Origin: Chiloscyllium plagiosum
Lineage: Eukaryota
Assembly (NCBI RefSeq): GCF_004010195.1
Contig: NC_057752.1
Location: forward strand, 8,754,387-8,818,386
Direction: 5' to 3'
Length of the DNA: 64,000 nt
Every line of letters starts with the position of its first letter. Position 1 is the first letter of the stretch. The translations under genes and the position numbers were made by a program. Positions 21,640-62,000 of the stretch are shown piece after piece. The notes under the pieces were generated by a model. The model ran no database searches, had not been told where the DNA came from, and worked only from the letters and a program-made list of their open reading frames with translations.

Positions 21640-21965
21640 TGAAGAAACACACGCACATCAGACGCTCCAAAGGTCAGGCACGGTACCTGGTAACTGAGGG
21701 CACACTCAGATTCCTGGCTCCCAGCTGGCATGGTTGCTGCTCACAGAAACGCTGCCGATCTTCACTGCTGACTGAAGCTGCAAGCGGTCAGACGGACAAT
21801 TGCGGCCGGGAGGGTCGGAGCGCGTGCTCAGTATAGCCCCCTTACACAGCGCGCGCGCTCCTTACTCGTTCCACCAGCGACACACGCAGCGCGAGTAGCA
21901 TCAGCACCAGCCTTATAACTTCCCTGAGTGGTTAACCGGCTAGGGGAGTCTGCCAATCACCATCG
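21640..21965 (-). promoter_or_regulatory. CpG-rich promoter/5' UTR of the SLC4A8-like gene
   Basis: Local CpG enrichment (gcgcgcgc, cggccgg) in a CpG-poor window; TTATAA TATA-like element at 21913-21918; CCAAT box at 21953-21957; both upstream of the ATG at 21731. Confidence 0.65.
21687..21731 (-). CDS. SLC4A8: First coding exon of a Na+-driven Cl-/HCO3- exchanger (SLC4A8/NDCBE-like); remaining exons not recognised in the window
   Basis: gcagcaaccATG (A at -3) CCA GCT GGG AGC CAG GAA TCT GAG TGT GCC CTC AGT TAC CAG|gtaccg = MPAGSQESECALSYQ, phase-0 donor. Recalled human SLC4A8 start is MPAAGSNEPDGVLSYQ|RPDEEAVVD. Lies in the CpG-rich patch. Confidence 0.8.
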
Positions 21966-22144
21966 TTCATCCTTTAATATGTGCACAGGGGAGGGTTGAT
22001 GGAGAAAAGCAGAGTGTATTTGAGTGATCATCCATCTTCGGTCAAAGTTTTTTTTAAACAAATTGCAGCTGTTGTATTAGTTTTTTTAAAAAAAATACAT
22101 CTAAATTTAATCTCATTATCAAGTCCATCGTTTTATAAAACAAA

Positions 22145-22360
22145 GAACCGTAGATGCTAGAAATCTGAAACAAAAACAGAAAGTGCTGGGAAAACTCAGC
22201 AGGTCTGGCAGCATTTGTGGAGAGAAACAGAGTTACGTTTTGACGCTTCATCAAAACTTCTTTAGGGTTACTGGACCTGAAACATTAATCCTGTTTCTCT
22301 CTCCACAGATGCCGCCAGATCTGCTGAGTTACTGCAGCAACTTCTGTTTTTGTTTCGTCA
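22145..22360. mobile_element. Older palindromic Penelope-terminus mini-element
   Basis: Inverted arms (aaacagaaagtgctgggaaaactcagcaggtctggcagcatttgtggagag / ctctccacagatgccgccagatctgctgagttactgcagcaacttctgttt) around a decayed core. Confidence 0.7.
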
Positions 22361-24949
22361 TTTTATAACCTAAATGTTTAAGACATTTCAACCTGATCGA
22401 AGCATTGTGTTTTGCAAATAGAATCATGTCATAGAAAGAGACAAGGATCACTGACAGGAAGCTAGTCAACTCACCCAGTACACACCAAGTTTTTTTCAAG
22501 AACTACTCAGTATCTCACTTTTTATTTTGCACTGTAGGTGTCTATCAATTCTCTTCTGAAGGCCTTAATTGTACCTACCTTCACTACACTTTCATTTCAC
22601 ATCCAAATCACTCGCTCTTATTTTTAAAAATCCTCATGTCCATGGTTCTTTGGCCATTCAAGTTACATTGGTGTCTTCTGGTTTTCAATCCTTCTGCCAA
22701 TGCAGAATTTCTCCCTCTGGAAGTATGTAAGTAAATGCAATTGTATAATGTAGTGCAGGTAGATTGAACTGTCAAGCAACTTTATAAATACACAAAATAA
22801 TAATGGAATAAACCTCATCATCATGTCAGTTGTATGTAAGACAATATTCTACTGACACTTCTTCCCTAAAAACAGAAACTGTCAAATATTTATTAAATTG
22901 AAACATAGTGGCCCAAAATCATATAAAAAACAACCCTTTATTACACCTAAACCTTACCAAAATGTTCAAACCTAAATAAAGTAAATATCACACTGCTTTG
23001 GGGTTGAGTCTTTGCATCCTGTATGATTGTCTTGGTATTCTCACCCATACCATAAACTGTTCTCAGGGAAGGAATGATCTATTTCTTTTAACTGCATCAC
23101 TGAAGATCAGATATTTTAGCAACTTATTACCTCCCGTTGTATGCCCCAAGTGAATGCAATACATTTTCTTCAAAATAAGGGGGAGATGCAATGGCGGAAG
23201 CTGTGACAGGAGGCAGTGTCCATTAAAATTAAATTAACTTCCAGATTCTTCAGCAGTATATTACATTTTCCATATGTCAAATTGAGAAAGGGCCAAGATC
23301 TATGGTGCAGGACATAATCAAATTTGAAAACAGGAAAAGATAAAATAAATCAGCAGTTGAGTGGCACTAAATTTGGATTTTAAAAATCATGTACACTTTG
23401 GAAGGATGGGAAGGCTGCAACATGTAAGCAGTTTTGAAACATGTGAGGCATTCTGTTACCTGAAGTTGCATTGGTTTATTTCCAAGGATAACATTCAGCT
23501 TTATGTTATTGTCTCAAGTGGTCAATAAGATGAAGTCTATCTTATTACATTCAGACATGATTGAAATAAGTGGCATTGTTTGCCTCAAGTGATTTCAGAA
23601 CATAGTTTTGCTGACTTTCAATGTGACCCTTCAAATTGTTGCAACACCCACCAGACCTTTGGCTAATTGGTTCCTAAATCTAGTTTAATTTTCACATTAT
23701 AAAAGGAAAGTAGGCCTGAAATGCCAGTGTAGCATATAAGCACACAAACATTTAACATTACTTCCATTTAAAATTCCTTCCTTTCCTATCCTAAGAGGTT
23801 TTAGCTGATGTAAACATAAATTGATCAAGTTCTCCTTTAAAGCAAATAAATTAACTTGATAAAAGTAAACCAGATCAGAAATTTAGACAATCATTCATAC
23901 CCTAATATTGCATGGCATAATGTCAGGTCCAACATTCCTTAATTGGCATTGTTGACAATGTAATCACTAACATTGGGATGACTGTCAGTAAAATTACAAA
24001 AAGCACTACACATAGACTCTTAGTTTCCAACTGTTGAGCACACAGCTGTCCTTAACTCTTTAAAGTGTGCATTTTGTTATTCAAAAACCATGTGGAGACC
24101 CCTCACTATCAACTGTCAGACTTGTCCTGAGGTGAGAAAAGAATATCCAATTCCTCAGCAAACCCATTTTCAAAACTCCTCAATGTACATGACTATTGGA
24201 AGATAAATAATGGTTGATCATTTCCACTGGTCAATGAGACAGGAAAGAGGGCATAAATTGAAGGCAATCACAAAAAGAGTTAAAGAGGTTTGAAAGAAAA
24301 ATCTTTATGCAGAGAATGATTAGCATGTGGAATTATCTGCGAGAAGCTTCTGTTGAAGTCAAGTCAGCCAATTTAGTTAAAAGGAAATTAAGTAGGTGCT
24401 TAAAATGGGAACATGAAAGGTTATGACAAGAGAGTAGGACAGTGGGATTAAGCTAGGTGGCTGGATGGAGAAAGCATGGACACAAACACGATGGGCCCCA
24501 TGCCCTGTTTCTGTACTGCAACATCCCTTGTTTTTATAGAAATAACATAGCTGCATGCAACTTTTCTGAAAATAATAATCAAGCTCTTCAGAGATTTTTA
24601 AAAACATATTCTCAATCCCCAGATGAGAGCACTGCTTTATAATCATTTCCAATCTATCATACCATGGCTATATTAATCCGCACATTAGATACTCTTTTGA
24701 CAGAGTTGATCCCTTATGTGCATACAACAGATTGCTTTAGATGTTTAAACTTCAGCTTTCTTTATTTCTTTATCATCTATAAATCACAAAAAGCGTTCCT
24801 TGCAACCACATAGTGACAATGAAGAAGCATTTTAAGCTAACCAATGAAAACAGAAACTTCCAGTCATAGCCAGAATTTTGCAATTTGCTTGGACTGTTTT
24901 GATAAAGAGGTTTTCATGTTGACATCTTCACATTAATCAAGCCTAATGC

Positions 24950-25160
24950 TGGGAATTCTCCTGATGTCTTTGTCAACATCCCAGCTACAACCACTACTAT
25001 CTCAAGTTAATCTGGTCATTTATCCAATTGTGTTTTGGGGACAATGTTAGTGCATAAGGGCTGCTGTGTTTGCCAAAAATAATCACTTTTTAAAAATGGT
25101 TTTTATTGGGTAAAGCAATTTGAGCCATTTCAGAGCCATAAAGCAATATATAAATGCAGG
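24950..25160 (+). mobile_element. Deu-domain SINE remnant (SacSINE1/AmnSINE1-like)
   Basis: tctggtcatt...gctgctgtgtttgcc...gcaatatataaatgcag resembles the recalled Deu-domain and 3' tail. Confidence 0.5.
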
Positions 25161-25263
25161 TATTATTAGTTTCGTTGCTGCTACCCTTCCAAAAGCCATC
25201 TTCAACATGTACAGAAGCTGAGCTATGTATCTCTGCTTCACATTCATTGACTTATTATAAAGG

Positions 25264-25469
25264 AGGAGAAAGTGAGATCTGCAGATGCTGGAGATCAGAG
25301 CTGAAAATGTGTTGTTGGAAAAGTGCAGCAGGTCAGGCAGCATCCAGGGAACAGGAGAATCGACGTTTCGGGCATTGATTCCTGAAGAAGGGCTTATGCC
25401 CGAAACGTCGATTCTCCTGTTCCCTGGATGCTGCCTGACCTGCTGCGCTTTTCCAGCAACACATTTTCA
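25264..25469. mobile_element. Hairpin Penelope-terminus mini-element with 17-bp TSD
   Basis: Near-perfect inverted arms; TSD acttattataaaggagg (25250-25266) / acttataataaaggagg (25469-25485). Confidence 0.85.
25382..25409 (+). ncRNA. Minimal type I hammerhead ribozyme motif
   Basis: CTGAAGA-A-GGGC(TTAT)GCCC-GAAA-CG-TC: CUGANGA and GAAA core, 4-bp helix II, palindromic ACGT helix III, GUC cleavage triplet. Confidence 0.65.
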
Positions 25470-28400
25470 CTTATAATAAAGGAGGGTCTATATTCTCCAC
25501 CAAGTTTCTCAAAAGTGTAGACATTAGAATAAAGCGATGTTCCTGACTTTTTAACTCATCCCACTTTATTTTTCTAAAATTACAAAAAGTGACAAAATAA
25601 TTTCCAAGATACTTTGCAGAAGTTAACAATACAAGAATTTTAAGAAAGCACAATATTCTGCATTGTAAATCCTATATTTGTAAGAACCCAAAATGAGAGA
25701 GAAGCTTTTTAACATATGCTGATTACATTTGAAACAGATAACATGCTTAATTGTAAACAGAGCTTTCCTACAGACAGTAACCCAACTCAAGAGGTTTGGA
25801 ATTTGAATGTTAAAGAAATGTAATGCTTGTGTTGGATGTCCAGGAGACTTTCTAAGAAAATCTAAGAAAAATGGCGAGCATGGAAAGGAAGAGAGGCTAT
25901 AGTTACTTTTTGGCCTACCAATAATAGGCTTTGATTGAGCATTGTTCTAACTGCAGGACAGGGGAGGTGTGTACAAACTGGTAAAATACAAGTTCCAGAC
26001 TGTTATTAGGAAGACCTTCTGCAGACAAAGAATAATCAATGTCTGGACAATATCTGAGAAGGTAGTGAGGCAAAAAAATTAGATCGAAGGAACAATTTGA
26101 TACCATCTGGTGGAAATGGGGATTTGTGAAAAGATGAGCTATTTGGAAAAACAGACTATTCTATCTGTATGGAGCTTTGCAACTCATCACTGAGTATCAC
26201 TGCAGATACAACCCAATCTTCTCAGCTCCAATTAAAAAAATGCTAAACTCTTATGATTCTTTGTGTAACTGTAATCCCTCACCCTAAGAAATCTAAACTG
26301 TACCCTTTCAATTGCTGTCATATCTTCCCATGCCTGGGAAGCGAATATGCTTGGGAAGGTGCTGGTCAAGTTTTAGTTAAAGCAAAGCAAGCCAAATAAA
26401 CACAATAATTTTGAAAAGATTTGGGTACACTACTTCACTGCTTCTTTTATCCTTGAACTTTTACCTTTCCTTCTATCCTCTGACTTAAGCCTTTTCCATC
26501 TGCCAAAATGTCAACTCCAGCTGGGAGAGAGCAGAATGATGACAATTGCATACATGGCCCTGGCCTACGCTGTTCAAAGAATCAACCAGCAGAGGGCATA
26601 AAATCCCTATAATGAAATAGGAATCCACCTCTCCTGTTAGATTTATTCAAGAGCTTGATACAATGCCTCACAACATTTCCACTGACCTACCTTCTCAAAC
26701 ATCAGCTAAATTGACAGGGATTATATTGCAATTACTCTTGAAAAGACCTGCTTAGACATATGCATGTTTATAATGAGTCCTTATCCTATACTATCTTGAT
26801 AGATGTGGTGAAAATGCAGCAAATAGATATTGTGCAAATTAATACATTCTTTGGCAGTGTTTTTAGCTCATGTATAGTTTTCATTTTGCAGCAAACACTT
26901 ATGTTGTCAAAATATATGAAAGACCTTAATGCTAAGTATTATGAACATTTAGCAGGAAGAAAATCCCTGTTACAGTTGTGCACATCTCATTTGGACACCT
27001 ACTGGGAGGCACAGGACTTCTCCAGGTGGAAATTTAGAAAAATGGATGACAAACTACTCTCTTAAGTTTCCCATCGATTTTAAGACAATTAAAGTTGCCC
27101 ACGCTCCAGGATAGTGCTGGCAACTCCAGCGATTAGAATAAGTTTCTGGACAGTGTTGTGATATGAGCTTGCAAGTAAGGAGAAAACTCCTGTGGAACAT
27201 TTAAATTTGCAAATTTTTGTCAATGGTCATAAAAATGTTGCAGCTGGGGAGGACAGTTGTAAGCAGGAGGTCATGAGATGAAACCTTCACAAATACAACC
27301 AACCAGATGTGGTAACCTTATGAACAGCAGCATTCTCAGCGACACAGACAAATCAGAATTCCATTTTATTCACTTCATCGTGATTCTGCACACAGGTCTA
27401 AAGCCACAGGTCTCTCAGAAGACTTTATTCCATTTCCAAATAGGACAAGACAGTGGTGAACAAGGTGCCAACATTTTCACAACTGAACCAGAACTAACAG
27501 CTGGACATGCAAATTTAGTAAATTACCAGAGTAATCAGATATATTTCAACAGTTCAATGGTAAGCTCATTACTTTGAATACTGAGCCAGATTAAATTAAC
27601 ATCTGGGTTTTTTTTGCCTTGTGGAAGTCTACAGATTTTAGTTGATAATATAAATGGCATTATGATTTAATCAATAAAATAAACATATTTGTTTTTTGAA
27701 TAAATCCTAAAGAGACATGAACCAATCATATTATATTCCTTATGTGCAACATTTTGCTACAAAAATGACATGCATGTTCTTCTGACCTTTCTTTTCTTCC
27801 CCGCATTTCGTTCCCAAAAATAAAAGTCTGGCAAACAATTCTCAAAAGGAAATTGGGCAAGCACTTGAGAGAAATAAAACTTGCAAGGTTATCGGACTGA
27901 CTGGATTGCTCCACAGAGAGCCAGCATGGACTTGCTGGACTGAATGGTCTTCTGTTGTGCTGCAATAATAATTCTCGAAGTTAATGAGCTTCCAGAAGAA
28001 ATAAATGTAATTATAGCATTTAAAAATCTTTTTGCCCAAAGATATGAATATATAGCGTACTACCGATAAGACTAAATTCTCACACTTCAGCACACTTCTT
28101 TTTCCTGCACCATGCTTTTGTCACGCTTTGAGACATCTGCTTATATTTGCTTGAATAGACATGGTTGTAATGCCTGATTTACTACTGTATTTCCTTGTCT
28201 AAATGTTACCATCCTTAAGTTGTGTCTCCCAGCTCACCACCACATGCCATAAAATACTTATGTTAAACATTTACACGCTTGAAAAATATTCTCAGATCAT
28301 TTCTACTGAAGATTACATTTAAAAAATGTCCCAAGTGCATTCAAATGCTCCTAGTTAAAGTCTCCTCAGCAATTCGGTTTTACCTTGTGGGAAAAATTAC

Positions 28401-28879
28401 CATAGAACCAAGTGTAATAATGGTGAATCAGATAGAATAACAAATCTAACCATGTATTGAGAATATATAGTTATACTTACGGGCTGTATGCAAACCTGGA
28501 AGATATAGAAATGTTGGAAACTCTCTGTATTAAAGAAGGTTTACCGTGTGGTTTCTTGGAAATTAAGTTGACAGTTTAATGCGTGATGTTTCCAGAAAAT
28601 CATACTACCTGAGGGGAGAAGACAAGTAAAACTTTTAGGAAGATAATGGAAAATGTTTATGGGCCTTAATTTCTGGAAATTGTTCTCACAGAACTAGGCA
28701 GCCATAAGGCAGAAATCCCTGTAGCTGAATGTCTCTGTCCATTTCTCAGCAGAGGCTTTTTTGGAACCTGATAAAGTTTACAGACACCAAATATTTCTGG
28801 CTACCTGATAAACTTTGAAAGGTTGAAATGTAACCATTTTCCAAAGACTTGGATCAAGCTTGATTTCACTCAGACCTAT

Positions 28880-29600
28880 AGACTCATAGAAGTTTTCAGC
28901 CTATCATTTCCAAACAGGTCAATAAACATCTAACTCAAAGTGCCATTTTCCAGCTTTCATTCCATAGCCCTGGGGTAATGCAAATGCATATATAAATATT
29001 GCTCCAATGTTTTGTGAATTTTTCAATTCAACCACCCCTTCAGGCAGTGTATTTCAGACTTCTACCACCATTTGTCTGAAAGATATTGCCCTCAAATCCC
29101 CTCTTACCTTAAAGCTATGCTCCGGGTTATTGACCCCTCCACTAATGGAAATAGTGCCTTCCTAGCCCCAACAGCTATGACCCTCATAATCATATACACC
29201 TCCATCAGATTCCCTCTCAACCTTTACTGCTCCAAGGAAAATAACCCTAGCCTATGCTGGTTATTGCCACAATTGGAGTACTGCATGCAGTTCTGGTTAC
29301 TACATTATAGGAAGGATGTGATTGCACTATAGAGTGTGCAGAGGATATTTACCAGGATGCTGGTATTCAGTCAATTCCATGATTCTATTATCTATCCAAA
29401 TTCTATGATTCTATGATTCAATGAAAACATTTATCATAGCTCAAACCCTCCAGTCCAGGCAGCATCCCGGTAAATATCCTCTAACCCCTCTGTAGTGCAG
29501 TGGCATCCTTCTTATAATGTAGTGACCAGAACCATAGCAGTATTCCAGTTGTGGCCTAACCAACATTTTATACAGTTCCAGCATAACTTACTCGCTCTAT
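28880..29600 (-). mobile_element. Old CR1 fragments (minus strand) with a short plus-strand CR1 piece and (ATTCTATG)n tail
   Basis: Reverse-oriented CR1 3' region; QLEYCMQFWLLHYRKD at about 29270-29330; ttctatgattctatgattc near 29401. Confidence 0.7.
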
Positions 29601-30255
29601 TGTGACGAAATGTGCCTTTGAGAGGGGTTTGTCCTGTTTCTCTTGAAGACAGGTGTTGTAAACCTGGTGCTGAGGTGTCTGCTTCATGGAAAGTAATTAG
29701 CTTTGGGTTTTTAAAAAATTAGACAAAAGAAGCATGAATGGGCGGAGTCAGGCTCACACAGACCTAGAGTTTTAGTTTTTCTTTCAGTTGTTGAAAGTTG
29801 GGGTGTTTGGAATTGAAGCTGCTAGATACAGCTCTCTATCTGCTGCTGCAAAAAGCTTGACATCCCTCTCTGTTGCTAGATTCATTCTGACAGTGTTCCT
29901 TCTCCTGGACTGGAGGAGATAGCGAATGAGGAAAATCTGTTTTTTATGAATTTACCTTTGCCAAGCTTGTGTTTATAGGATGCAGCAATATTGAAACAGT
30001 TGATGAGTAGTAGTGAGATAATATTTTATTTTGTTAATTATTTTAATAGAGTTAAAGTCATACCAATTCTTCTTTTTGTTTTTGCTTTGACTGTGGTGCA
30101 AGAATAATGTATGCTTTGCTTAAACTCTAGTAGTTTGACCAATGAAATCACATCTGAAACACAGCACTCTAACACTTACCTTTAAATAAGATAAAAGTTA
30201 GGGACTAGGCTATCTCCTGGATATGTTTTGGGGAGGTTTGGTCTGGTTCATAACA
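29601..30255 (+). repeat. 5' LTR (type A)
   Basis: Starts TGTGA and ends TAACA; its first about 350 bp recur at 40866-41215. Confidence 0.88.
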
Positions 30256-30636
30256 AGCTGGGGCCTCTTATCTGGATCAAAATCACTAATTCCAGATTGG
30301 GTTTAGGATTATTGGACTTAAAGGCAGTGAGTGGATGAATGTTGGTGTTCTCCTTTCAGGTGTTGCATTCAGTTGGTTTTCATAGGGTGTGTCTTGTGTA
30401 ATGATGGCTGTTTCAGAGGCTAAGAGTTTGCTAGGTGTGGCAGCAGTCTCTTGGGGTGATTTATAGATGGAAAGAAAAGCGAAGATTTTGGAATTGGCAG
30501 TCAGGCTGGAGTTGGGTTTGCCCTTGAGGAAAGGGAAGGTAATTGCAGCGATAGTTCAGCATTTACAATTGCCAGAAACACAATCGGAATAATTGAAAAT
30601 GGCTAAAATTCAACTGCAAATAGAATAGTGTGAATA

Positions 30637-31240
30637 TAGAGCATATGACATTGAACAGTACAACACAGGCATGGGCCCTTCAGCCCATGATGTTGTGCTG
30701 AACATGATACCAAATTGAACTAATCCCTTCTGTCTGTCCTTGGTCCATATCACTCTGTCCTTGCATATTCATGTGCATAACTAAACATCCCTTAAATGTT
30801 CCTATCATACGGTGCTTGCACCACCCTCCCTGGCAGTGCATTCCAGACTGCTACTACTGCCTGTGTAAATGCCCCTCACATCTCTTTTGAATTTTTCCCT
30901 AATCCACAAACGCATGCCCCTTAGTATTAGACATTTTACCTCTGGGAACAAGATTCTGACCGTTAACCCTAACTATATATCTCATAATTTTAACAACTTC
31001 TACCAAGTCTCCCTTCAGCCTCTGCCACTCCAGAGAAAACAACCCATGCTTTTCTAGCCTCTCCTTATAGCTCACACCCTCTAATCTAGGCAGCATCTGG
31101 TAACCTCTCTCCATAGCCTCACATCCTTCCTGTAATGGAGCGACCAGAATTCAATGCAACACTCTAAGTGTGGCCTGACCAAAGTCTTACAAAACTTCAA
31201 CATGACATCTTGACTCTTGTATTCAATTCCCCGACCAATA
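30637..31240 (-). mobile_element. CR1 3' fragment inserted in the Gypsy gag
   Basis: ORF 30899..31114 MLPRLEGVSYKERLEKHGLFSLEWQRLKGDL; gag resumes at 31241. Confidence 0.88.
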
Positions 31241-34200: not shown

Positions 34201-34448
34201 TTATTGAGTTACCTTCTGGAGGAAAATTATCAAAATAACCTGAAAGAGTTATTACAATCACATGGGGAGATACATGGGAATAAACTGAGAAGCAGTAAAC
34301 TGATTACGCATGATATTGATATAAGAAAAGCTATTCCAATTAAGCAAGACCCTTATAGGTTTAACTCTCTAAAGTTGGGACAGGTTCAAGAAGAGATTGA
34401 AAGCTTGCTCAAAGACAATATAATCGAAGTGAGTTGCAGCAAATAGAA

Positions 34449-48765: not shown

Positions 48766-48961
48766 TGATTGCAGATTTGAGTCTCAATGAATGTAAATTT
48801 TAAAATCTATTTGTAAATGTTAAAGAACACGAAACATTATTGGCTGCCCCATTACCTACATCTTAATCTTACCAAAATTCTACATGCATTCACAACCTTT
48901 AATAGAATTTCAGTGCCCCCTGTTGTAATTAGTAAGTAACTGCTTCACAGTCTTCACAAAG

Positions 48962-50300: not shown

Positions 50301-50384
50301 TACCTCAGGCACTTCAGGTGGAATTAGCCACTGGGACAGTGGAACAACTGTCTTGGTGGCTAATCACTGGATTAATGTTGATCA

Positions 50385-51070
50385 TAGAATCGTTGAATGG
50401 CTACAGCACAAAAGGAGGCCCTTTAGACCATGGAGTCTGTGTTGGTTGCTTGCCATTCCCCAACTCTTACTCTGTAACTCTGCAATTTTTTCCATTTAAG
50501 GTACTTATCTAATTCATTTTTGAAACCTAAGCTTAAGCTGCCTCCACAACACTCTCTGACAATGCATTCCAGATCATAACCACTGATAAAAACTCTTTCC
50601 TCATATCGCCTTTGGTTCTTTTGACAGTCAGTCACCTTAAATCTGTGCCCTCTGGTTCTTGATCTTTCCATTAATGGGAACAATTGTTCCCTACCTACCT
50701 TGTCTGGACTTCCTTATGATTTAGAAAATCTTGATCAATTCCCCTCTCAACCTTCTCTTCTCCAAGAAGAAGAACCCCGGTTCCTACAATCCAGCCACAT
50801 AACTGTAATTTCTCAGCCCTGGAACCATTGGTGTGAATCTTTTCTGCACTTTCCTTGGAGCCTTCACATTCTTCCTAAAGTGTGGGGCTCAGAATAGGAT
50901 GCAATACTCCAGGTGAGATCAAACCAGTGTCTTACAAAGGCTCACCATAATTTCCTTATTAATGTACTCTATACCTCAATTTATAAAACCCATGATCCGA
51001 TGTGCCATTTCAACTGCTTTTTCAACCTGCCCTGCCACCTTCAGAAATTTGTGCATGTAAACCCTCAGGT
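50385..51070 (-). mobile_element. Old CR1 3' fragment
   Basis: SRTRGHRFKV and GFKNELDKYLK remnants. Confidence 0.75.
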
Positions 51071-52469
51071 GCATGATTATAATGGCCACACTTTTAAAGG
51101 TGTTTTTTCAGAATTATAGAATGAAATGGGAGCCCTTTCAGCCCACTGTTCTTCTGCCAGCTCCTCAGAGGTCATAATCAGTCATTGTTACCCGACCTTT
51201 ATTCCTCATAGCTCTGTATGTTTCTTCCCTGCTTCAAGTTGGGCTGGTCTCCCATTAGAGAAAGAGAGAGAGAAGACTGATGGTGGTTTCACCTGAGGGT
51301 CACCACACTTCAGGCGAGCGGAGAGATTGAGAACTCACGCTATTTGGCATCACTCCGTATAGGAAACCAGCCATCCAGCCAATCCATCCTCCCTCTTCAA
51401 GTATTTATCTGAATAAAAGCTTCTGAATCTGCTTCCTTCTGCTTTTTGGAGAGTGGATTCCAGATCATATTAACTTGCTGCATAAAAAAAATTCATATTG
51501 CCTCAGGTTCTTTAATTGGTCCCTTTTGTTAGTCCAATGCCACAGTAAACAGCTTTTTTACGGTTACTCTATCAAAATCCATTATGCGTGTGAAGATCTC
51601 AATGACCTCTGCTCTGAGGAGAGCATCTCCAACATCTCTAGTCATTATATGTAAAATGCTGACAAAGTACCAACAGGCTGTATCAATTCCATAAATATTC
51701 TTTCCTCTAAAAACTACAAAAGGACATCAACACATGCCATGACTTGAGACATATAATTTGAGTCAGGAAAAGGAAGTTTACAGTTCAATTTCCAATTGTT
51801 TACTGAATTGGAGAAGGGAAAAAGGGGAGAAAAATAACTCTCAGTGTACAGCACTTTCCAGTGACCTCGACTTGAGCAAGATATCAGGTCAGAAGTGAAA
51901 TAACTCTACAAAAGGCTAGTGTCCTGTCACCAAGTCACCCTTTACACATAGAAAGTCCTTGACAATGATCCAACTCCTTCAGAGCCAGCTCTCAGAGTAG
52001 CAGAATCTCTGACACTCCTGTTTCTATCTGTCAGCCAGGGTTCCTTGATTGAACCAGATTAACAGCCCCAATTAGGGAACTCATACTCTATGACATCCAT
52101 CTGGCTGACCTTGTTACAATCAGTATAAGGAGAGGTCGGGAAAGGGTCCAAAATACCATACTCTTTCTGTGCTTCCATCAGTAATGGATATTTAGGAAGG
52201 TCCCAGGAAGTTGCTAATTGAACCATTATCCCAGTAAAGGAGTCAATGAGCTGGATTTTCATGCTGGGGCAAGTGGTGAGTGTCAGGAAATTTCCTGAAT
52301 TAGACATATCTCACCCCATATTCCCTCACACATCCATGTCAACTTAATGACCACTCATGCAAACCCATATCTATCCTTGTTTCTACACGCTCCACTCCAA
52401 CTCAGCCTGCAGCTATGACACACAGACCTAAAGAGCCACAGTATAGTTAAGTAAACCAACAATATAAAT

Positions 52470-52740
52470 GGGCAGTACAGTGGGTCAGTGGTTAGCACTG
52501 TTGCCTCACAGTACCAGGGACCCGGGTAGGATTCCAGCCTTGGGTGATTGTGTGGAGTTTGCATGTTCTCCCTGTGTCTGTGTGGGTTACCTCTTGGTGC
52601 TCCAGTTTCCTCCCACAGTCCAAAGATGTGCAGGTTAGGTGGATTGGCCATGCTAAGTTATTCATAGTGTCCATGGATGTCCAGGCAGGTGGCTTAGCTA
52701 TGGAAAATGCAGGGTTTTAGGGATAGGGTGGGATTGGGGG
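52470..52740 (+). mobile_element. tRNA-derived V-SINE (HE1-like)
   Basis: cagtggttagcactgttgcctcacag tRNA-like head; gtgtggagtttgcatgttctcc...tcctcccacagtccaaagatgtgcaggttagg V-domain. Confidence 0.8.
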
Positions 52741-52819
52741 AGAGAGATAATGAATGGAATAGATAAAGTAAAAGGTGCAAGAGATTTTCTTGATAATAAG
52801 CAATTCTATGCTGCATTTT

Positions 52820-52970
52820 TAAAAAACTTACATTTTTACAGCACTTCTCCGAATCACCAGACGCCTCAAAGTGCTTTACAACCAACGAAGCACTTTTGAA
52901 ATGTAATCACTGTAATGGTTTGTGCACAGCAAACACCCACAAACAGCAATTGAAGTAATGACCACATCTT
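52820..52970 (-). mobile_element. Deu-domain SINE remnant
   Basis: caaagtgctttacaaccaacgaagcacttttgaa...cccacaaacagcaat is the reverse of the recalled Deu/3' tail. Confidence 0.55.
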
Positions 52971-53019
52971 CCTTCTGTTTATAACACACAGTTAAGTCAA
53001 ATTGAAAGTCACAATTGAA

Positions 53020-54050
53020 GAGGAAGAACAGAGGGACCTAGGAGTATATGTGAACAAATCATTGAAGGTGCCAGGACAGGTTGGATGAGCAGTTAACCAA
53101 GAATGTAATGGCGTAGGCATGATAAATAAAGGCAGAGAGTATAAAGACAAGGAAGTTATGTCAGACCTGCATTAAACACCAGTTTGGCCTCAAATGGACC
53201 ACTCTGTCTTCAATATGCAGGTGGACTGCAAAAAATCAGGTTGGTAACGGATGCCAAGACAAGGAATTTATAGAATATTTACAAGATGGCTTTTTGGAGT
53301 AGCTTGTGGTGGAGCCCACTAGGGAACAAGCAAGTCTGGATTCGGTGACTTGCAATGAGGCAAACTTGTTTAGGGAGATTAAAGGTAAGGAACTCCTAAG
53401 GGGGAGTGACTATAACATGATAAAGTTCACTCTGCAGTCTGGGAGGGAGAAGCTGGAATCAAATGTAACAGTTTCACAATTGAGGAAAGGTAACTACAAA
53501 GACATGAGCGAGGAGCTGGCCAGAGGTGATTAGAAGGGGAGGCTGGCAGGGAAGACAATGGAACAATGGAATTTCTGGGAATAATTTGGGAAGCCTCGCA
53601 GAAATTCACAAGAATGCTTCCAAGGATGAGAAATTTCAGTTATGTAGATAAAAATTGGGACTGGTTTTCATGGAGAAGAGAAGATTAAGATGAGATTTGT
53701 TTCAAAATCATGAGGGGCCTGGACAGATTAGATGGGCAAAAATTATTTCCATTGGTGTAAAGACAGGGAAGAGGATGCTGATTGTAGCTAACTAGCAAAA
53801 AAAAAAGCAATAGAAACATGAGGAAAAATGTTTTTTTGCAGTAAGTGATTAGGATCTGGAATGCACTACTTAAGTGTGTAGTGGAGGTCGGTTCAATTGA
53901 AGCTTTCAAGATGAAACTGGACGTTATTTGAACAGGAAGAAAGTGCAGGGGTATAGGGAAAAGGTGGGAGACTGACACTAGGTAAATTATTCCGATGGAA
54001 TGCCACTGCAGACATGATGAACAGAGTAGCCTCCCCTCTGTACTGTACGG
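53020..54050 (+). mobile_element. Composite old CR1 fragments
   Basis: QRDLGV remnant; inserted endonuclease piece (EPTREQASLD, SDYNMI); CR1 3' region. Confidence 0.7.
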
Positions 54051-56114
54051 ATATCAGTCCATGAAAATTAAACTAGAATTTATTTGTTCCCCAAAAAATG
54101 CAAACTGAACTATGCAGTGAGAACACTTCTTGTACAAACGACAGATGGTAAGATGTTATAACCTTAAATATTGGAAAGGATAAGAAGAAGGGAGAGGCTG
54201 GAGTGAATTTTGTCTCTCCAAAAAGCTGTTGGCCATGCACAAATTTCAGAAAAGAGCAATTCCGTGAACATATTTTGATAAAAATTGCTAGTTTTAGTGA
54301 ATGATTTTCAGTCATTCCAAACCTATTTTTTGTACCTGCTAAAATAAGTAGAGAAGAACCAAATGAAGTTTTAATATCAAACACACTTTAATTTTCATTT
54401 CTAGTCAAAACAACCAACACGATTGTACTTAAGGCCTTCTAGATGGGAAAGATTTTGACTTTGCAATTTAAAGAAAGCAAGGCTCTTTATAAAAGTCAGA
54501 GGTAAAGGCTTGGCTAAAGTTGAGTCTATCAACACCACATTAATCAGCTCTAGTTCCTTATGTTACAAGGAATAACATAAGCATAGTTGCATCAGGTAAA
54601 GATATCCTGCTTGAGGCAAAACCTACATAATGGTTAGCAGCTTGATTATCTAGAAACAAAACCTACAGGATCTTGGTGGCAGATATTGGAAAAACTATTG
54701 AATATCAACTGGAAAACAGCCTTCAGAATTCAGACAATCCGCAGCATCAGCTTCTAAGATTATACAGCTATGTAGATAGGACACTGACAAGCCAGAAGGC
54801 AAAACTGATTTATTTCTGATTAAAATCTAAATTCTTTCAAATTAGAAGAAACTTCTAAAGGTACTTTACTTAAAGCTAAAGGGGCAGAAGTTGCAAATAC
54901 AAGCAAGGCTGAAAGCTAGAGACCTGTACAGTGGCAATGTATAATCTACCACTCTCCATGTCTCTATCAAAAATATACCAAAGCGCCTGCAGGTTTGATT
55001 TTGAAAAAATAGCAAGAGTTAAAGAGCTCTAAAAGCACAGCTCCAAAGCTTTCCCAAAAAAAATACAGCAACACAAAAACACACTTCAAAAGGCTTTTCA
55101 ATGCTAAGAAGCCTTACCTCTGTATAAAGCTTGCTTGGTTCTACTATTTTCTTTCTCCATCAGCCATACAGATATGCAGATAGGACATTGACAAACCAGA
55201 AGGCAGATCTGACTTATTTCTGGTAAACAGCACCAAAATAAAGTTAAAGCTGGCACGACATCATCATTCCATTGTTTGGCATGAACGCTGCCTACAGGGT
55301 GTAAGCTGCAACTTTAAAAACTACAAGCCTGTAGTTGTCAAACCAATATTCTTAAAGGGGCCAAGGCCAGTAAAGGAGCAGCAACAAGAAAAACACTGGA
55401 AATGGAGGCATTCATGGGAAAAAACAATAGAATGGGTGAAGCAAAACCAATAAAAAAAATAAACAAACAAACACTCTACCTCTTGACGAAAAGCAAAGAG
55501 AAATGAAAGCAAATGCAAAAAATGAAATGTAAATACTTACTTGTAAATTGAACTTTCAATTATATCTTTTCTGAATTACAACTATTCAAACAAAGTAAGC
55601 ATTTTACAGATCAAGCCATAAATTAGCCTCGGAGGAGAATTCCAAAAACAAATGCTGGCACTAGTGAGGTGGAGCTTCACAGAATTGACGTATCTGGTCT
55701 TTCTGTGAAGAATCAGTAAGATCCACAAAAGATGCAGCAAGTTCTGAAAGATCAGCTCAAGATAAGCATTAACTTCTGGATTGACTGACTCCAACTTATG
55801 TCATACAGACAGCAACCCCAAGAGTCTATTGACTAATTTGTCAGATGATGCTACAGCAGAGGCATGAGTGTGACCTCTCCAAAGAAGAACTGTCAGAGAA
55901 GGTCATTCAATTTGTCATTGCCTCTACACCAATTAAAACCTTCAGAAAGTGTCCTTTGGGAAAGAAAAAGAGCCATATCATTGATGTGTTACATGAAGAT
56001 AGACACAAGCATAAAGCCATAGTGGAAGGTTAACAATAATTTGTGCCTAATAATAATTAGTGCAGCCAACACCATTGCTATGGTCAGCAGAGCACACCAA
56101 GCCAACAAAATCTG

Positions 56115-56285
56115 CAACATTTAAGAGGCATTTTGATGGATATATGAGTAGGAAGGGTTTGGAGGGATATGGGCCGGGTGCTGGCAGGTGGGACTAGATT
56201 GGGTTGGGATATCTGGTCGGCATGGATGGGTTGGACCGAAGGGTCTGTTTCCATGTTGTACATCACTATGACTCTATGACTCTAC
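56115..56285 (+). mobile_element. CR1 3' terminal stub
   Basis: Conserved 3' UTR ending ctatgactctatgactcta. Confidence 0.88.
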
Positions 56286-57264
56286 TGTTTTTCTTGCTAT
56301 CCATAAAGCATGCAACATCAAGGGACATTAGGTGAATGTGCAGGAAATCTGGTTTGAAAGGTAAAGCTAGATTCCAGAACAAAACATAAATTACCAACAA
56401 GCTGGTACAATGTCACATCACAGGCAAGGAAAGTGCTAAAACCATGCACAAACACAAATACATCAGTGAGACAAATGAAAGACAAATTTCAGAAGATGAA
56501 CAAGCTTTTCACACCCTCACATGTCATGTCAATAATATAATACAATCAGATGTTTTTAACAACCATTAACATCATTTGTCCTGAAAAGGCAGAATAACAC
56601 ACCCTAAAAGCTAAAACTGACAAGGGGTTGGTGTCAACATATTACCATCGCACATTCTGAAAGACACTTAGCAAGTGGCACTCCAAGGTACAGCCTATGA
56701 GAGACTGCCTCACAATATATAGCTGTAAAAAATACATATTTTTATTGTTCTCTTTTTTTAATTGTGGACTAAAATGAAAACACAGACTGTCTTAAAACCA
56801 AGAACTGATCACTAGATCAAGACAAATTATCAAACCTCCAAAGTGTTACATTGAAGTTTTAAATATTAGCTTTTAAAACCCTATTTTACCAGCTTATATA
56901 ATTATCCAATTGACCACACATGCTCATGTACAAAACCATGTATATCCGTTTGGGATAATTTCTTTATCTTTGGTACAAGATGCATGTTATCGCATGTCTT
57001 ACAGCAGTGTACCATTTATGTATTATGGCATGTAACTTGATGTCATAAAGATCTCAGACTCCATCTTAACTGCAATCACTTGAAGCATGAAACGTTAATG
57101 GAAGAATATTGCCCTGTGATAACTGAATAGCCTAACACTAGCCCAGACACTAATATGACTGTGAAGGTAACAATTGTCTATAATAGCTGTAATAAATGCC
57201 TTTTGGATCTTTCAATACCTAGTCATTTGTACCTAGTTTCTAATATTATGAAGGATATTGGAGG

Positions 57265-57640
57265 GGAGGCAATGGTCTAGAGGTATTTTCACTAGACTGT
57301 TAATCCAGAGACCCAAGTAATGTTCTGGGGACCTGGGTTTGAATACCACCATGGCAGATGGTGTAAATTGAATTCAATAAAAATCAATGAATTAAATTCA
57401 ATAAATTAAGAGTCTAATGATGACCATGAATCCATTGTCAATTGTTGGAAAAACCAGTCTGGTGCATTAATGTCCTTTAGGAAAGGAAAAGGCCATCCTT
57501 ACCTGGTCTGGCCTACATGTGACTCCAGACCCACAGCAATGCGATTGACTCTTAACTACCCACTGGGCAATTAGGAATGGACAATAAATGCTGGCCTGGT
57601 CAGTGACGCCCTCATCATGTGAACAAACAATAAAAAAAAA
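57265..57640 (+). mobile_element. tRNA-derived SINE with LINE-like 3' tail and poly(A)
   Basis: A/B-box-like head (tggtctagagg...gggtttgaatacc), body, ggcaattagg...aataaatgctggcc tail, A-run. Confidence 0.65.
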
Positions 57641-58787
57641 ATCCTGGCACATCAGGGAAAGATATCTTGTCGGAGGCAAAGCTCCATATGCCAAACTAAG
57701 TCAAATAATTAGACATCAAACAAACAAAAATCTGTTAACCTGACTATATGACTATGAGAGGTCACACATCACAATATCATGGCAGTGGAAGTCACAAGGC
57801 TCACATAGTCACATGAAACACTTGACTTCAAGGTAGTTGTAACAAGTTTTTGAAGATGGCACGAAGGTTAATAAAAAAGGAATACAGCATTATTAGCTTT
57901 ATAAAAGGATATCAGGGATAAAAGACATCAGCTTGGACAGGATGTTCGTCTTCAAGCAGAGGGGGTTAAAATACATTTCAAAATCATGAAGCGTTTTGAT
58001 AGTTTGTTTTCCTTATTTTCTGCTTCCAGTGGCAGGAAGGTTGTTAACAAGAGAAAACATTATTAAAGCAATTGGAAAAGAACCAAAGGTAACGCAAGGA
58101 AACATTTAAAAAACAATAAGTGGTTAAGATCTAGAATATGCTCCTTGAAAGTGCAATGGCAAAGTGGCTTTCAAAAGGGAGTTGGTTAGATACTTTAAGT
58201 AAAACAAAATGCTGAGTTATGTGGAAAGCAGGAGAATGGGGCTAATCAGAGAGCTTTTTCAAAGAACTGACACTGGTACAATGGGCTGAAAGGTCTCCTA
58301 TAGTGTTGCATAATCTTACTGATATCACTATAAAGGAGGCGACATGAAATTAGGCATAATGTTACCAAAGTTTGTTTTGTTAGACTGCCTGCTATCTATC
58401 AGAAACAGTAATGTTGCCGCCATGATCTGAAGTCTTCCCTGGTGAGTTGCTGCCTGGTAACACACTCCTGCTGTTTGTTATTCCATGGATCAAACACTTT
58501 CTGCCATCTGTTCTCCGAACTACATGGAGTGTAAAGCAGTCTGCTGTGCAGCAAATTCCGGTCTTTTCGCATTAGTTTAATTACCTTCCCACCACATCCC
58601 GTCCTGAGTGCCATTGCAATCCAGTTAAGAGTGCCCCTCATCCCTATCGTTGTACATGGTCAAGATCAAACACTTTCACCCACACTTGGCCAGTCAGTGT
58701 CTATTGAATTGAGTACAGTGTTGATCAACGGCCTTTTGCAGTAGTTAGTTGGGTTTAATCAGATGCCCACAAATGCAGCCACAGGAG

Positions 58788-58967
58788 TTACTCGAATTCA
58801 ATATGTCCAGTGAGATGCACCAAGTAATCGGCTCGAGTTGCTGCACCAGCTGGGAACACAGCTTGGCAGAATTCACAGACTTGGGAGTTGAGGCTTGATT
58901 CAGAGCTCAGCATGGCTTCATGTCCTGTGCAGCATTCCTCAGCTAAACAATGAGGGCTCCATGAACT
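58788..58967 (-). CDS. TANK-like adaptor, terminal coding exon (UBZ-type zinc finger)
   Basis: Acceptor ggctgcag|AGT, phase 0; SSWSP...VCEFCQAVFPAGAATRADYLVHLTGHIEFE*, versus recalled human TANK PIWKP...VCEFCQAVFPPSITSRGDFLRHLNSH. TAA at 58790-58788. Confidence 0.9.
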   Translation of the reverse strand, partial: SSWSPHCLAEECCTGHEAMLSSESSLNSQVCEFCQAVFPAGAATRADYLVHLTGHIEFE

Positions 58968-59044
58968 CTGCAGCCAATCAGACAACGTAACACTTATCAC
59001 ATAAACACAACCAGTTTGTGTTATTGAAAGCTTTTTTTTTCTCA

Positions 59045-59750
59045 TCCACTCATACATGCACAGACACAAACATTCTCTCACATAAGCACATATTCTCTCA
59101 CACACACACCCTCTTTCTTACACACACATACACAATCTCTCACACAGTCACTCCAATCTCTCACACAGTCACTCTCACACACATGCATACTCACTCACAC
59201 ACACATACACACTCACACACACTCTCAGTCTCTCACATATGGAATCCCTACAGTGTGGAAGAAGGCCATTCAGCCCATCAAGTCCACACCAACCCTCTAA
59301 AGAGCATGCCACCCAGACCTACACCCTACCGTCTCCCTGTAACCCCACATTTCCCATGGCTAATCAACCTAGCCTGCACATCCCTGGTCAGCATGGGCAA
59401 TTTCCCATGGCCAATCCACCTAACCTGCAAATCTTTGGATTGTGGGAGGAAACCAGAGCAGCTGGAGGAAACCCATGCAGACACGGGAAGAATGTGCAAA
59501 CTCCACACAAACAGTCACCTGAGGCTGGAATCAAAGCTGGTGTCTGGCACTGTGAGGCAGCAGTGCTACCTCACTGTGTTACCTTAATGCTCACACACTG
59601 TCTCACACTCATATACACACACACACACACACAGACACACACACAGACACAAAGTCTCTCATTCGCACTTTCTCTCACACATACACACGCACACACACAC
59701 ACAGTCTCTCATTCGCACTTTCTCTCACACATACACACTCTCTCTCTCTC
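59045..59750. repeat. (CA)/(CT) microsatellite tract interrupted by a minus-strand V-SINE (about 59240-59580)
   Basis: Dinucleotide-rich sequence on both sides; the insert is the reverse complement of the 52470 SINE. Confidence 0.8.
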
Positions 59751-61404
59751 TCAGCAGTGCATTGGAAAAGCTCTGGTTTGGCAGAATTTTAAACATATTA
59801 CTTTGGTCTGTTTTGGCTATGTTGCCAAGAATGGATAGTGCTTACTCCCGCCAAGATGTCATTTAAAAAAGCAATTGGGGCCTGACGTAAATCATACAAG
59901 CCCAAGTTGTACATTACTAAGGCCCACTGCCTGAATCAGATAGATGTTTAGCCACTCAGTGCTAGGTCCTTTTGTAAATCAGGTAGGTAAAAACAATGAC
60001 TGCAGATGCTGGAAATCAGAGCAACTGAAGCATCATTGCTAGTCAGACTCTTAAGTGTTATATGGATAGTTATCACATTCACCAGGGAGCTCAAGTTTTA
60101 GCTGTGGGCTAAATCTTACCAGAAATTGGCAAAGTATAATTTTTTGGCACATTTCATGGAGGATTTCTCTCTGCGCACCCTAGCTTCCTCATGCTATATT
60201 CTCAAACTTGTCTCATTATCTGTGTACCACACCCCTATGGTCTCCTCTCATTGTATTCTCCCACGTGTCACAGGCAGAAGTACTGACCACTGATGAGATC
60301 TCCCTGGATTTCCCTGCACCACCTTTAAAACCCAGCAGTGCATTGGGTCAGGCTCTGGCACTCTGCAGCTGCCCTTCACAGTTCCTGTCAATTGCCCCAG
60401 ACACGTTAGGCAGAAGGTAATTGTCACTTCCCCTTTGCTGACAGGGACCTGGAGGTCCTGGTGGATGGGGTGAGGGGGAGAGCAGGCAGTCATTGCCCAT
60501 GGAGCCCTGAAATAAAGGTCTGGAAGAGTAAGCAGTGATTTGAAGTCACCAGGTTACTCATCTGACTGACATGTCGGGAATTGTCTCCGTCTACTTTCTA
60601 TCCTGAGGGTAGGAGAATGGGAATATCAATGAGGCCAGGTGATGTCATAATGAGGCGTTAATGTATGCTAATCAATGTAAATCAGCCTCTCGCTTCTCAC
60701 TAATGAGAATCTCGTCTCATCGTTCAATACTCCGTTGGAACCTTTTACCTTTGACGTCAATAAGGTCCTCACTGGCCATCTCAAACAATTTTCTCAAATT
60801 TCTTGCCAATGACCACATCGTTCAGTGCCTGAGAAATTTCCATCCACTTATGTTTTTCTAAAATCTTTTGCTGAATTGGGAGCTCATTGATATCGTTCAG
60901 TACTAGAAAACACAGCACTTTTCAACTGAGTGCCAGCATCAATGACTCTTCGGTGAGGTATAGTGCAAGCTGCACATAAAATCCTCCACACAGCACACAC
61001 ACTGCTTCATCTCAAGAATATGACAGTGGAACCATTCGTACCAACCATAGTCAATTAGTATTGGGTTCTAGGTGGTTTCATGCTGTGGGCCTGCAGTTAC
61101 TAGGAGTTGTGCTTAAAACTACCCAAATCATTTCAGAGTGGACATCTCTATTTAACGTCAACTCATTAAATTCAGGATCCAAGGTGGAAGGACAGCATGA
61201 CACACCTCTGCACCTCAAATACCTGGGCTAAGGTTTTCATCCTGCCCAAACCACATGGTACAATCTTTTGTGGAGTCACATTACATAGTCTACTTATTGG
61301 CTTTTGGATACTTTCATAATTACTAGATAGTCTTATATGAAAATGTTCCAGACATGTTTGAATGGTGTGACACTGTTATACAATAATAAAATGCAGTTGC
61401 CTAC

Positions 61405-62000
61405 CTGCTGTGGCTCCGCTATCTCTGGAGGGATGGAAAGTTCAGGTAAAACAGATACACAATCTGTGGAACGATAGATAACAGCTGAGTTCAAGTTCCT
61501 TTGCTCTGGAACGTTTTCCAAATCATTACCTGAGTACTGTCTTTCCTGAAAGAGGTAATTCGATTTTAAAATTATATCCCCCTCACCCAGGATGTGGTGA
61601 GAAATATCCATAGCTGGCTGTTCCAATGAACTCCTATCTACATTAAAGTTGTAAGAGCATCTGCAGTCATCATACAAGTTGCTCAGAGAGTCATTAACAC
61701 TTCCGTCAATTGGAGTTGGAGGTTCTGGTTGATGAACAGTATTCAAGTCGGCTAATTTCTCTGGTTCACTTATGAAAAAGCTGGATTCATCTCTGGTTGG
61801 GGGAAATCTGATGTCAAGTCTGGAACAATACTCAAGCTCCTTGCCATGTTTTCTGTCCACCATAATGCCTTGAGAATCAGTAGGAACATTGCAGGCAGCT
61901 ACCTGGAGGACTTTCTGCTTCTGTGGTCTGAGAAAGGGTCCTTCAGATTGGTCTGGCTTCCCAGCATCTGTGCACTGTATTGGCAGAGTGAATGGCCTTT
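61405..62000 (-). CDS. TANK-like adaptor, penultimate coding exon (TRAF-binding motif)
   Basis: Polypyrimidine tract + ttcag| acceptor (phase 1); PIQCTD at 61983-61966; LDIRFPP and SFFISEPE resemble TANK FNVKFPP and STFLHSTPE; ends EPQQ|gtaggc (phase 0), in frame with 58967. Confidence 0.88.

Follow-up and report, generated by a model that had tools for sequence, protein, structure and literature searches.

Two TANK-like exons that lie upstream of the apparent start of an SLC4 bicarbonate transporter gene in the bamboo shark Chiloscyllium plagiosum raise the question of whether they belong to TANK itself or to a further member of the TANK, AZI2 (NAP1) and TBKBP1 (SINTBAD) adaptor family. The DNA analysed here (the window) is a stretch of 64,000 nucleotides, and a preliminary description had placed the two exons on its minus strand (Table 1). 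Their ends are those of spliceable exons: the penultimate coding exon (exon A) is entered in phase 1 from an AG acceptor behind a pyrimidine tract and leaves by a phase-0 GT donor, and the last coding exon (exon B), whose AG acceptor is served by a poor pyrimidine tract, begins at 58967 and runs to a stop at 58790-58788, with its CEFC at 58877-58866 and two histidines further on. Exon A equals residues 48-245 of the RefSeq protein XP_043537882.1 (C. plagiosum, named 'TANK') at 198/198 positions and exon B equals the remainder at 59/59, so that the match is no product of chance and the RefSeq model therefore uses the 61405->58967 junction that had been predicted. A search of sequencing runs listed no RNA run that contains the sequence; three runs presumed to be RNA, with 0.44-0.63 of its words, carry no weight here. 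The TBK1-binding exon (residues 1-47) finds no match within the 64-kb window and must thus lie beyond 64000, as had also been guessed. Judged from read-through isoform models (three of sturgeon/paddlefish TANK and two of the short form described below), all of which diverge after the GPQQ-equivalent residue, the last intron occupies the position of TANK's last intron. The exons taken singly were uninformative: exon A retrieved no homologue among longer proteins, single-exon PDB and Pfam searches gave no useful match and an Atlas search with exon A no usable one, and a repetitive metagenome protein was dropped as a chance match.

Table 1. Features of the C. plagiosum window (positions are those of the window)
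Feature	Position	Strand	Remarks
CpG island, likely SLC4 gene promoter	21001..22000		CpG observed/expected 0.92
First coding exon, SLC4 bicarbonate transporter, likely SLC4A8	21687..21731	minus	MPAGSQESECALSYQ, 15 codons
Intergenic stretch	21750..58780		Retroelement remains the sole find
Two ATTAAA hexamers, candidate polyadenylation signals	58576..58759	minus	3' of stop
Last coding exon (exon B)	58788..58967	minus	Residues 246-304 and stop; 59/59 identical to XP_043537882.1
C-terminal Cys2-His2 zinc finger, UBZ-like as in TANK	58803..58877	minus	C276, C279, H296, H300
Last intron	58968..61404	minus	Phase 0
Penultimate coding exon (exon A)	61405..62000	minus	596 nt; residues 48-245 of XP_043537882.1
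Second conserved block DIRFPP	61798..61815	minus	Common to TANK; alignments and motif table
PIQCTD, PxQxT-type TRAF-binding motif (presumed)	61966..61983	minus	Common to TANK; pattern P[IV]Q[CR]T

Related proteins fall into two groups, short forms of about 225-310 aa and the long canonical TANK, with both sharks and bony vertebrates in each. A tree of 39 of the 108 collected proteins (truncated models, near-duplicates, unnamed records and extra frogs and snakes being left out) separates the short forms from tetrapod and shark TANK with support of 100/99, and a 20-row tree without long branches does so with 100/100; the grouping with tetrapod TANK orthologues that would have marked this gene as TANK itself is thus not seen. 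Forcing the cartilaginous-fish rows into a single group gives trees that are rejected (p-AU 0.008 with 39 rows, 3e-6 with 20), which rules out a duplication confined to sharks and places the event before the split of cartilaginous and bony fish. The trees are unrooted and without AZI2, TBKBP1, lamprey or other cyclostome, amphioxus or tunicate rows, and the duplication is thus not tied by them to a genome doubling. Both forms are present in 14 named species, where they are 23-40% identical (best local alignment within species), and in 13/13 species with contig data they lie on records differing in length. By these comparisons the short gene is separate from canonical TANK and older than the shark/bony-fish split, and we regard it as almost certainly an old paralogue of TANK rather than TANK itself, as the preliminary description had proposed.

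The short gene is already in public gene models, under a variety of names. The NCBI name zgc:113184 is carried by the models of Latimeria, Pristis and Polyodon, which implies a zebrafish copy; 'TANK-like' and 'uncharacterized LOC125487416' are also applied, inconsistently, and the RefSeq names are crossed, the short genes of bamboo shark and Xenopus tropicalis bearing the name 'TANK' and the true zebra-shark TANK that of 'TANK-like'. The gene had been thought to be kept in cartilaginous fish, a range that proves too narrow: orthologues occur in sharks, rays, sturgeons, paddlefish, coelacanth, caecilians, salamanders and frogs. None of the 31 short-form representatives comes from an amniote, in searches that also missed teleost copies, mammalian TANKs and even the echidna query row. 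No functional or evolutionary description of the short gene was found in the literature searched, which mostly did not cover the subscription journals where much fish immunology appears.

The order of modules in the short protein is a TBK1-binding-domain helix, a TRAF motif, a long disordered linker and a zinc finger. The Pfam TBD family (PF12845), the exon for which lies outside the window, matches residues 6-58 of XP_043537882.1 with 40.9 bits (cut-off 27) and is passed by 9/9 other short-form proteins scanned. In the short-form alignment M10, L17, L24, Q31 and L38 are invariant and spaced seven apart, and at the aligned positions the NAP1 helix of the NAP1-TBK1 crystal 5EP6 has the same residues (E 0.003, with a query profile that included two TANK rows); the isolated NAP1 helix binds TBK1 at 0.72 uM (PMC5027247). 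AlphaFold2 predicts a helix at residues 2-45 (pLDDT 90-96 over residues 11-40), a disordered middle and a finger of two short strands and a helix (pLDDT about 70-80), and Foldseek returned no match for this model at E<=0.001, those of the finger being non-significant. A PxQxT-type motif, which we take to be TRAF-binding, follows directly behind the TBK1-binding domain, as in TANK; as the sequence pattern P[IV]Q[CR]T it is present in 29/31 short and 40/40 long representatives, one further short form having PIQCS, and it falls at residue 44-56 in short forms as against 163-274 in long ones. The four finger ligands are invariant in 20/20 aligned sequences, are kept across short and long forms, and were counted in 29 of the 31 short representatives (26 by pattern and three more with a Gln-to-His change), the remaining two being truncated models without the finger. 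Of the 108 proteins, 56 long ones but none of the short forms matched a profile built from TANK N-termini, and no N-terminal coiled coil stands ahead of the TBK1-binding domain in the gene models, which are not mapped 5' ends. The plain TANK-like build first described therefore needs amendment: the TBK1-binding helix forms the N-terminus of the protein, and the TRAF motif and C-terminal finger are retained.

The comparison with TANK/I-TRAF (echidna XP_038607647.1 and horn shark XP_067891348.1) extends from the TBK1-binding domain and the PxQxT motif to a DxKFPP-like block, a GPQQ..W.P block, the C-terminal Cys2-His2 finger and the last-intron position. In contrast to TANK, the short form is reduced at the N-terminus by roughly 120-230 residues, the coiled coils among them, is a separate and diverged gene with a tree group of its own, and has an SLC4A8-like neighbour rather than PSMD14/TBR1/SLC4A10, the neighbours of TANK in human. 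AZI2/NAP1 was compared through the 5EP6 helix only, where the N-terminal helix of the short form aligns with the core residues in register. TBKBP1/SINTBAD, likened to the short form by description only, shares the PF12845 domain (PMC11883510), but is much longer and has N-terminal coiled coils; those of NAP1 and SINTBAD bind NDP52/TAX1BP1 according to the same paper, whereas the short form has none.

Downstream on the same strand, at a distance of 37.06 kb from the short gene's stop codon, is a 15-codon exon, MPAGSQESECALSYQ, that is likely to be the start of an SLC4 bicarbonate transporter, and of SLC4A8 in particular. ACC stands ahead of its ATG, it has a phase-0 GT donor, and its 1-kb bin is the only one of 64 with a CpG observed/expected ratio above 0.45, the other 63 being at or below 0.41. 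The place and strand of this exon are as had been described, while its SLC4A8 label has no database match: a PDB search with the exon found nothing, and no further SLC4 exons were found within the 64-kb window. MPAGSQESECALSYQ resembles the human SLC4A8 start. For human NDCBE-A, PMC4664831 reports a unique N-terminus of 16 aa, and for SLC4A7 and SLC4A10 it reports starts that begin with other tetrapeptides. Among the 268 stop-free stretches of at least 50 aa between the two genes, five have Pfam matches (two RVT_1, two Integrase_H2C2 and one weak SCAN) and none belongs to the T-box or JAB/MPN families, although shorter exons would escape, so the PSMD14/TBR1/SLC4A10 succession that follows TANK is not seen here. 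In human, TANK is followed by PSMD14, TBR1 and SLC4A10, with TANK upstream of SLC4A10 on the same strand.

Independent support for the linkage comes from the sterlet, in which the model RXM91736.1, on a 69.7-kb contig, has SLC4 exons fused to a short form at residue 1455. Its residues 637-868 score 449 bits against SLC4A8 (7RTM), as against 435 bits for SLC4A10 (637-867) and 396 bits for SLC4A7 (637-856); the model is visibly misassembled, some exons being repeated and exon 2 misplaced, and over the whole protein the PDB scores, which are inflated by chain length and repeats, rank SLC4A7 first and SLC4A10 second. The short-form records of whale shark (12.2 Mb) and zebra shark (19.6 Mb) fit the published X chromosomes of these species, of ~12 and ~20 Mb, which carry HoxC and match human chr12. 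By size alone these records are consistent with X linkage of the short gene, while those of thorny skate (8.7 Mb) and horn shark (37.8 Mb) fall outside the X range of 16.4-28.8 Mb given in one preprint; the supplements of the papers searched mention neither the short gene nor SLC4A8. A candidate place on the SLC4A8/HoxC rather than the SLC4A10/HoxD block is suggested by a single neighbouring gene in the window, the fused model of the sterlet and, in two sharks, record sizes that fit the HoxC-bearing X, and we consider it very probable that the short gene is a whole-genome-duplication copy on the SLC4A8/HoxC segment.

Three other readings of the locus have to be set against this one. That the gene is simply the shark TANK orthologue, as its RefSeq name has it, accords with the lack of a long C. 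plagiosum TANK among the matches, but in whale, zebra, horn and saw sharks alike a long TANK of 426-490 aa exists as a gene apart and falls with tetrapod TANK in the trees, and the idea, already refuted in these four species (whale and zebra sharks, which have both genes, being of the same order as C. plagiosum), deserves next to no credence. It is very unlikely that every annotated protein is truncated and that the gene is a full-length TANK duplicate whose product has an N-terminal coiled coil, since 0/31 representatives, from sharks to frogs, have more than 12 residues ahead of the first Met; the 5' exons do lie outside the window, that Met could be conserved for TBK1 binding, NAP1 having Met there, and 9-12 residues precede it in some isoforms. 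That TANK, or its 3' half, was duplicated long ago singly or as part of a segment, and that the copy came to its SLC4 neighbour by a route unconnected with the genome doublings, is improbable, if less so: a partial duplication would fit the missing 5' exons, the stretch between the two genes yielded no T-box or PSMD14-like exon, and the trees have no outgroup by which to date the event. Yet the short gene is upstream of its SLC4A8-like neighbour on the same strand, as TANK is of SLC4A10 in human, the linkage is seen again in the sterlet, and the gene predates the shark/bony-fish split and lies on small, X-sized shark records.

As a whole, the best explanation, and one we hold to be likely, is an intact ancient second TANK gene, probably the SLC4A8/HoxC genome-duplication copy, encoding a predicted TBK1/IKK-epsilon and TRAF binder without the coiled coil. 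Binding of TBK1 and TRAF, as predicted from the conserved motifs, is quite likely in its own right. The N-terminal helix would enter a four-helix bundle with the TBK1 C-terminus, at the site contested by NAP1, TANK and SINTBAD, the PxQxT motif would hold TRAF2/TRAF3, and the zinc finger may read ubiquitin or NEMO. The coiled coil of TANK serves self-association; the short protein, lacking it, would neither self-associate nor reach NDP52/TAX1BP1, unlike the other adaptors, and most likely it dampens TRAF-TBK1 signalling by competition, as a brake of the TANK type. The protein is probably a TBK1/TRAF-binding competitor or tether, and if it binds both partners we lean slightly towards a net damper rather than an activator. 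That a protein of the same origin instead acts positively, as a stimulus-specific tether recruiting TBK1 to ubiquitinated TRAF3 complexes and favouring interferon induction, seems rather unlikely, even with all three modules for bridging kinase, TRAF and ubiquitin kept. TBK1 activation needed the TBK1/TANK contact in reconstituted cells (PMC3169550), and the NAP1 helices in the TBK1 complex make no mutual contact (PMC5027247), so that a lone helix can bind TBK1, but the portion that is missing is the long helical N-terminus, which 56 long and 0 short of the 108 proteins contain, and TANK-null mice have overactive immune cells (PMC11883510), so that the closest relative works largely as a brake.

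Beyond the damper that we favour, it is conceivable, at somewhat less than even chances, that the short gene is a fourth TBK1 adaptor of non-amniote jawed vertebrates that completes a set of one per Hox chromosome (AZI2, TBKBP1, TANK and the short gene), has been a coiled-coil-less TANK competitor for >400 million years, is X-linked in sharks with incomplete dosage compensation and hence a sex-biased dose, and was lost in amniotes. The Hox chromosomes were not uniquely paired by Simakov 2020, who left a match between the HoxC and the HoxD chromosome undecided; the short gene adds one gene family that would join these two. In reviews the adaptors with a TBK1-binding domain are counted as TANK, NAP1 and SINTBAD, and optineurin appears as a fourth, distant protein that uses this site (PMC3169550, PMC11883510, PMC5027247). 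A conserved extra member would alter the reading of interferon and NF-kB control in zebrafish, Xenopus, sturgeon and sharks; in these animals a 'TANK' knockout may be masked or may hit the wrong gene. The short gene also offers a natural test of the purpose of TANK's coiled coil.

The exons of the preliminary description, namely exons A and B (the last two coding exons of a TANK-like gene) and a 15-codon exon, are where it placed them when re-read in the window sequence, all on the minus strand. Exon A (198 of 198 residues) and exon B (59 of 59) are identical, end to end, to Chiloscyllium plagiosum protein P0011 (XP_043537882.1), of which they together form residues 48-304, and the splice it proposed between them is already modelled in this RefSeq entry. 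Residues 1-47 of P0011 had no match anywhere in the 64-kb window. The last acceptor in the window has a poor pyrimidine tract. Read-through past the last donor (61404-61336, minus strand) extends the frame by a short open tail, yielding a product without the finger; such finger-less models recur for the short form in ray, skate and Xenopus and for sturgeon TANK (P0008, P0009, P0077, P0095, P0097, P0105 and P0106), and could reflect either a genuine isoform or a modelling habit.

Features of the window
Feature	Position	Strand	Remarks
Exon A	62000-61405	-	AG/GT ends
PIQCTD (in exon A)	61983-61966	-	Encoded sequence
Exon B	Start 58967, stop 58790-58788	-	Encodes Cys2-His2 finger
15-codon exon	21731-21687	-	Phase-0 donor; inside CpG island
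Broken LTR-retrotransposon remains	31500-34450 and 37760-38320	+	Integrase zinc-binding matches; weak SCAN-like match (E 9e-4, below cut-off)
Broken LINE reverse-transcriptase remains	43866-45308 and 38391-38654	-	RVT_1 matches

This gene, the short form, is separate from canonical (long) TANK. The position of the TRAF motif sets two builds apart: residue 44-56 in short representatives (the pattern matched 29 of 31) and 163-274 in 40 long ones. Both forms are present in 14 named species, with 23-40% identity by best local alignment, and in all 13 species with contig data they lie on records of differing length, although assembly versions may differ (short versus long: whale shark 12.2 and 99.3 Mb, zebra shark 19.6 and 108.4 Mb, horn shark 37.8 and 142.0 Mb). 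Maximum likelihood, applied to 39 of the 108 collected proteins, gave an unrooted tree, without AZI2, TBKBP1 or jawless-fish rows, that supported the short/long split (100/99), with cartilaginous and bony vertebrates separate within each side. Since long branches meeting were flagged in this tree, it was rebuilt, likewise unrooted and without such rows of other adaptors or jawless fish, from 20 rows with no long end branches, and the split was supported at 100/100. A cartilaginous-only grouping of all cartilaginous-fish rows was rejected in both trees (p-AU 0.008 and 3e-6, respectively). Read-through isoforms place the last intron identically in the short form and TANK, from which we infer that the two arose by duplication at the DNA level.

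P0011 passes the Pfam TBK1-binding domain (TBD) at residues 6-58 (40.9 bits against a cut-off of 27). Residues M10, L17, L24, Q31 and L38, spaced seven apart, are invariant in 20 short forms and align with the equivalent residues of the NAP1 helix in the NAP1-TBK1 crystal 5EP6 (E 0.003, with a profile that included two TANK rows). In the AlphaFold2 model of P0011 (mean pLDDT 50.8), residues 2-45 form a helix, the middle is disordered and the chain ends in a finger; a Foldseek search with it gave no significant match. Among the gene models of the 108 proteins, a profile of TANK N-termini matched 56, all of them of the long form. The short form thus differs from TANK in lacking the N-terminal region, whereas the TBD, TRAF motif and finger are common to both. 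A TRAF-binding motif and a UBZ finger have been described for TANK (PMC11921546). The TRAF-binding motif of TANK is of the PxQxT type. Among short forms of salamanders (P0025, P0028), one newt carries Arg in place of the motif's Cys, and the Pleurodeles model has no motif. In three hyloid frogs (among P0032, P0034, P0035 and P0037) the Gln that follows the second finger Cys is replaced by His, while the four ligands are retained.

A HMMER search with exon A returned five proteins: whale-shark, electric-ray and caecilian proteins (242-295 aa), echidna TANK and a repetitive protein judged a chance match. Profiles built from the first of these matches, and from eight short forms with two TANKs, returned 23 and 61 proteins respectively; P0011 was one of the matches, and no long TANK of C. 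plagiosum itself was among them. The searches found the short form in sharks, rays, sturgeons, paddlefish, coelacanth, caecilians, salamanders and frogs, a wider range than the retention in cartilaginous fish first suggested. The proposed loss in mammals is no more than a possibility: none of the 31 short representatives is from an amniote, against nine amniote long clusters (eight from the second profile and one from the exon A search), but teleost copies and TANKs of mammals escaped the same searches. Short-form models of Pristis, Latimeria and Polyodon are named zgc:113184, and a 78-member chordate cluster of that name in the ESM Atlas (213 aa), without a common Pfam family, hints at shorter or more diverged teleost copies. 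RefSeq names are crossed, in that the short XP_043537882.1 and XP_004911963.2 are called TANK and the long zebra-shark XP_048389684.1 TANK-like, and in horn shark both genes share one name. The Xenopus MetaClust protein P0079, a pogo-type transposase (HTH_Tnp_Tc5, DDE_1) fused to the short form, is probably a gene-model artefact.

Human gene orders are TANK-PSMD14-TBR1-SLC4A10, AZI2-CMC1-EOMES-SLC4A7 and TBKBP1-TBX21, and SLC4A8 is not known to have an adaptor neighbour. The 15-codon exon had no match in a database search, and the 64-kb window holds no further SLC4 exons; its SLC4A8 label rests on a likeness to the human SLC4A8 start, together with published SLC4 N-termini. Human NDCBE-A, an SLC4A8 variant, is reported to have a unique 16-aa N-terminus, and the reported SLC4A7 and SLC4A10 starts differ (PMC4664831). 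The CpG island around the exon is the sole one in the window (observed/expected 0.92, with 63 other bins at 0.41 or below). Between it and the short form, 5 of 268 stop-free stretches of at least 50 aa match Pfam, all retroelement-type; positions 1-1900 of the window resemble, by eye, another decayed retroelement. Linkage of the short form to an SLC4A8-type gene is independently backed by sterlet model P0084 (RXM91736.1; 1717 aa, 69.7-kb contig) of the sturgeon short-form cluster, named 'Electroneutral sodium bicarbonate exchanger 1', in which SLC4 domains precede the short form, which starts at residue 1455. Compared one stretch at a time, the transporter part of the model scores 449 bits with SLC4A8, 435 with SLC4A10 and 396 with SLC4A7 over nearly the same residues, while whole-protein scores favour SLC4A7 and SLC4A10, whose chains are longer. 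The model is misassembled, with SLC4 exons repeated, and is likely an assembly or annotation artefact, of use only as linkage evidence. The core proposal of a TANK paralogue beside SLC4A8 is borne out; it did not foresee the missing coiled coil. The gene was already modelled.

The whale- and zebra-shark short-form records (12.2 and 19.6 Mb) agree, by size matching rather than mapping, with published X chromosome sizes of ~12 and ~20 Mb (PMC13100897). The shark X is reported to carry HoxC and to be homologous to part of human chromosome 12 (PMC10620051) and to chicken chromosome 33 (PMC11406177). A preprint infers chr43 to be the RefSeq bamboo-shark X and puts the smallest X at 16.4 Mb, which the 16.39 Mb record of P0011 matches in size only; at 8.7 and 37.8 Mb, respectively, the skate and horn-shark records fall outside its X range (10.1101/2025.02.26.637739). 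Incomplete dosage compensation has been reported (PMC12318234). HoxA and HoxD have been assigned to alpha segments and HoxB and HoxC to beta, with the pairing left unresolved in that account (PMC7269912); TANK and the short form, taken as a pair, would be consistent with a pairing of D with C.

The isolated NAP1 helix is reported to bind the C-terminus of TBK1 at 0.72 uM and to make no NAP1-NAP1 contacts (PMC5027247), at a site for which TANK, NAP1 and SINTBAD compete (PMC3169550). NAP1 and SINTBAD are described as binding NDP52 and TAX1BP1 through N-terminal coiled coils, and TANK-null mice are described as having overactive immune cells (PMC11883510). The short form would occupy TBK1 and TRAF sites but could not build the usual adaptor assemblies, and would most likely act as a damper; the main rival reading makes it a positive tether.

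No paper on the short form was found in the literature searched, whose coverage largely misses subscription journals and in which the gene name is only partly searchable. Already present in public gene models under names such as TANK and zgc:113184, the short form is real and conserved, a wrongly named variant within an established adaptor family.
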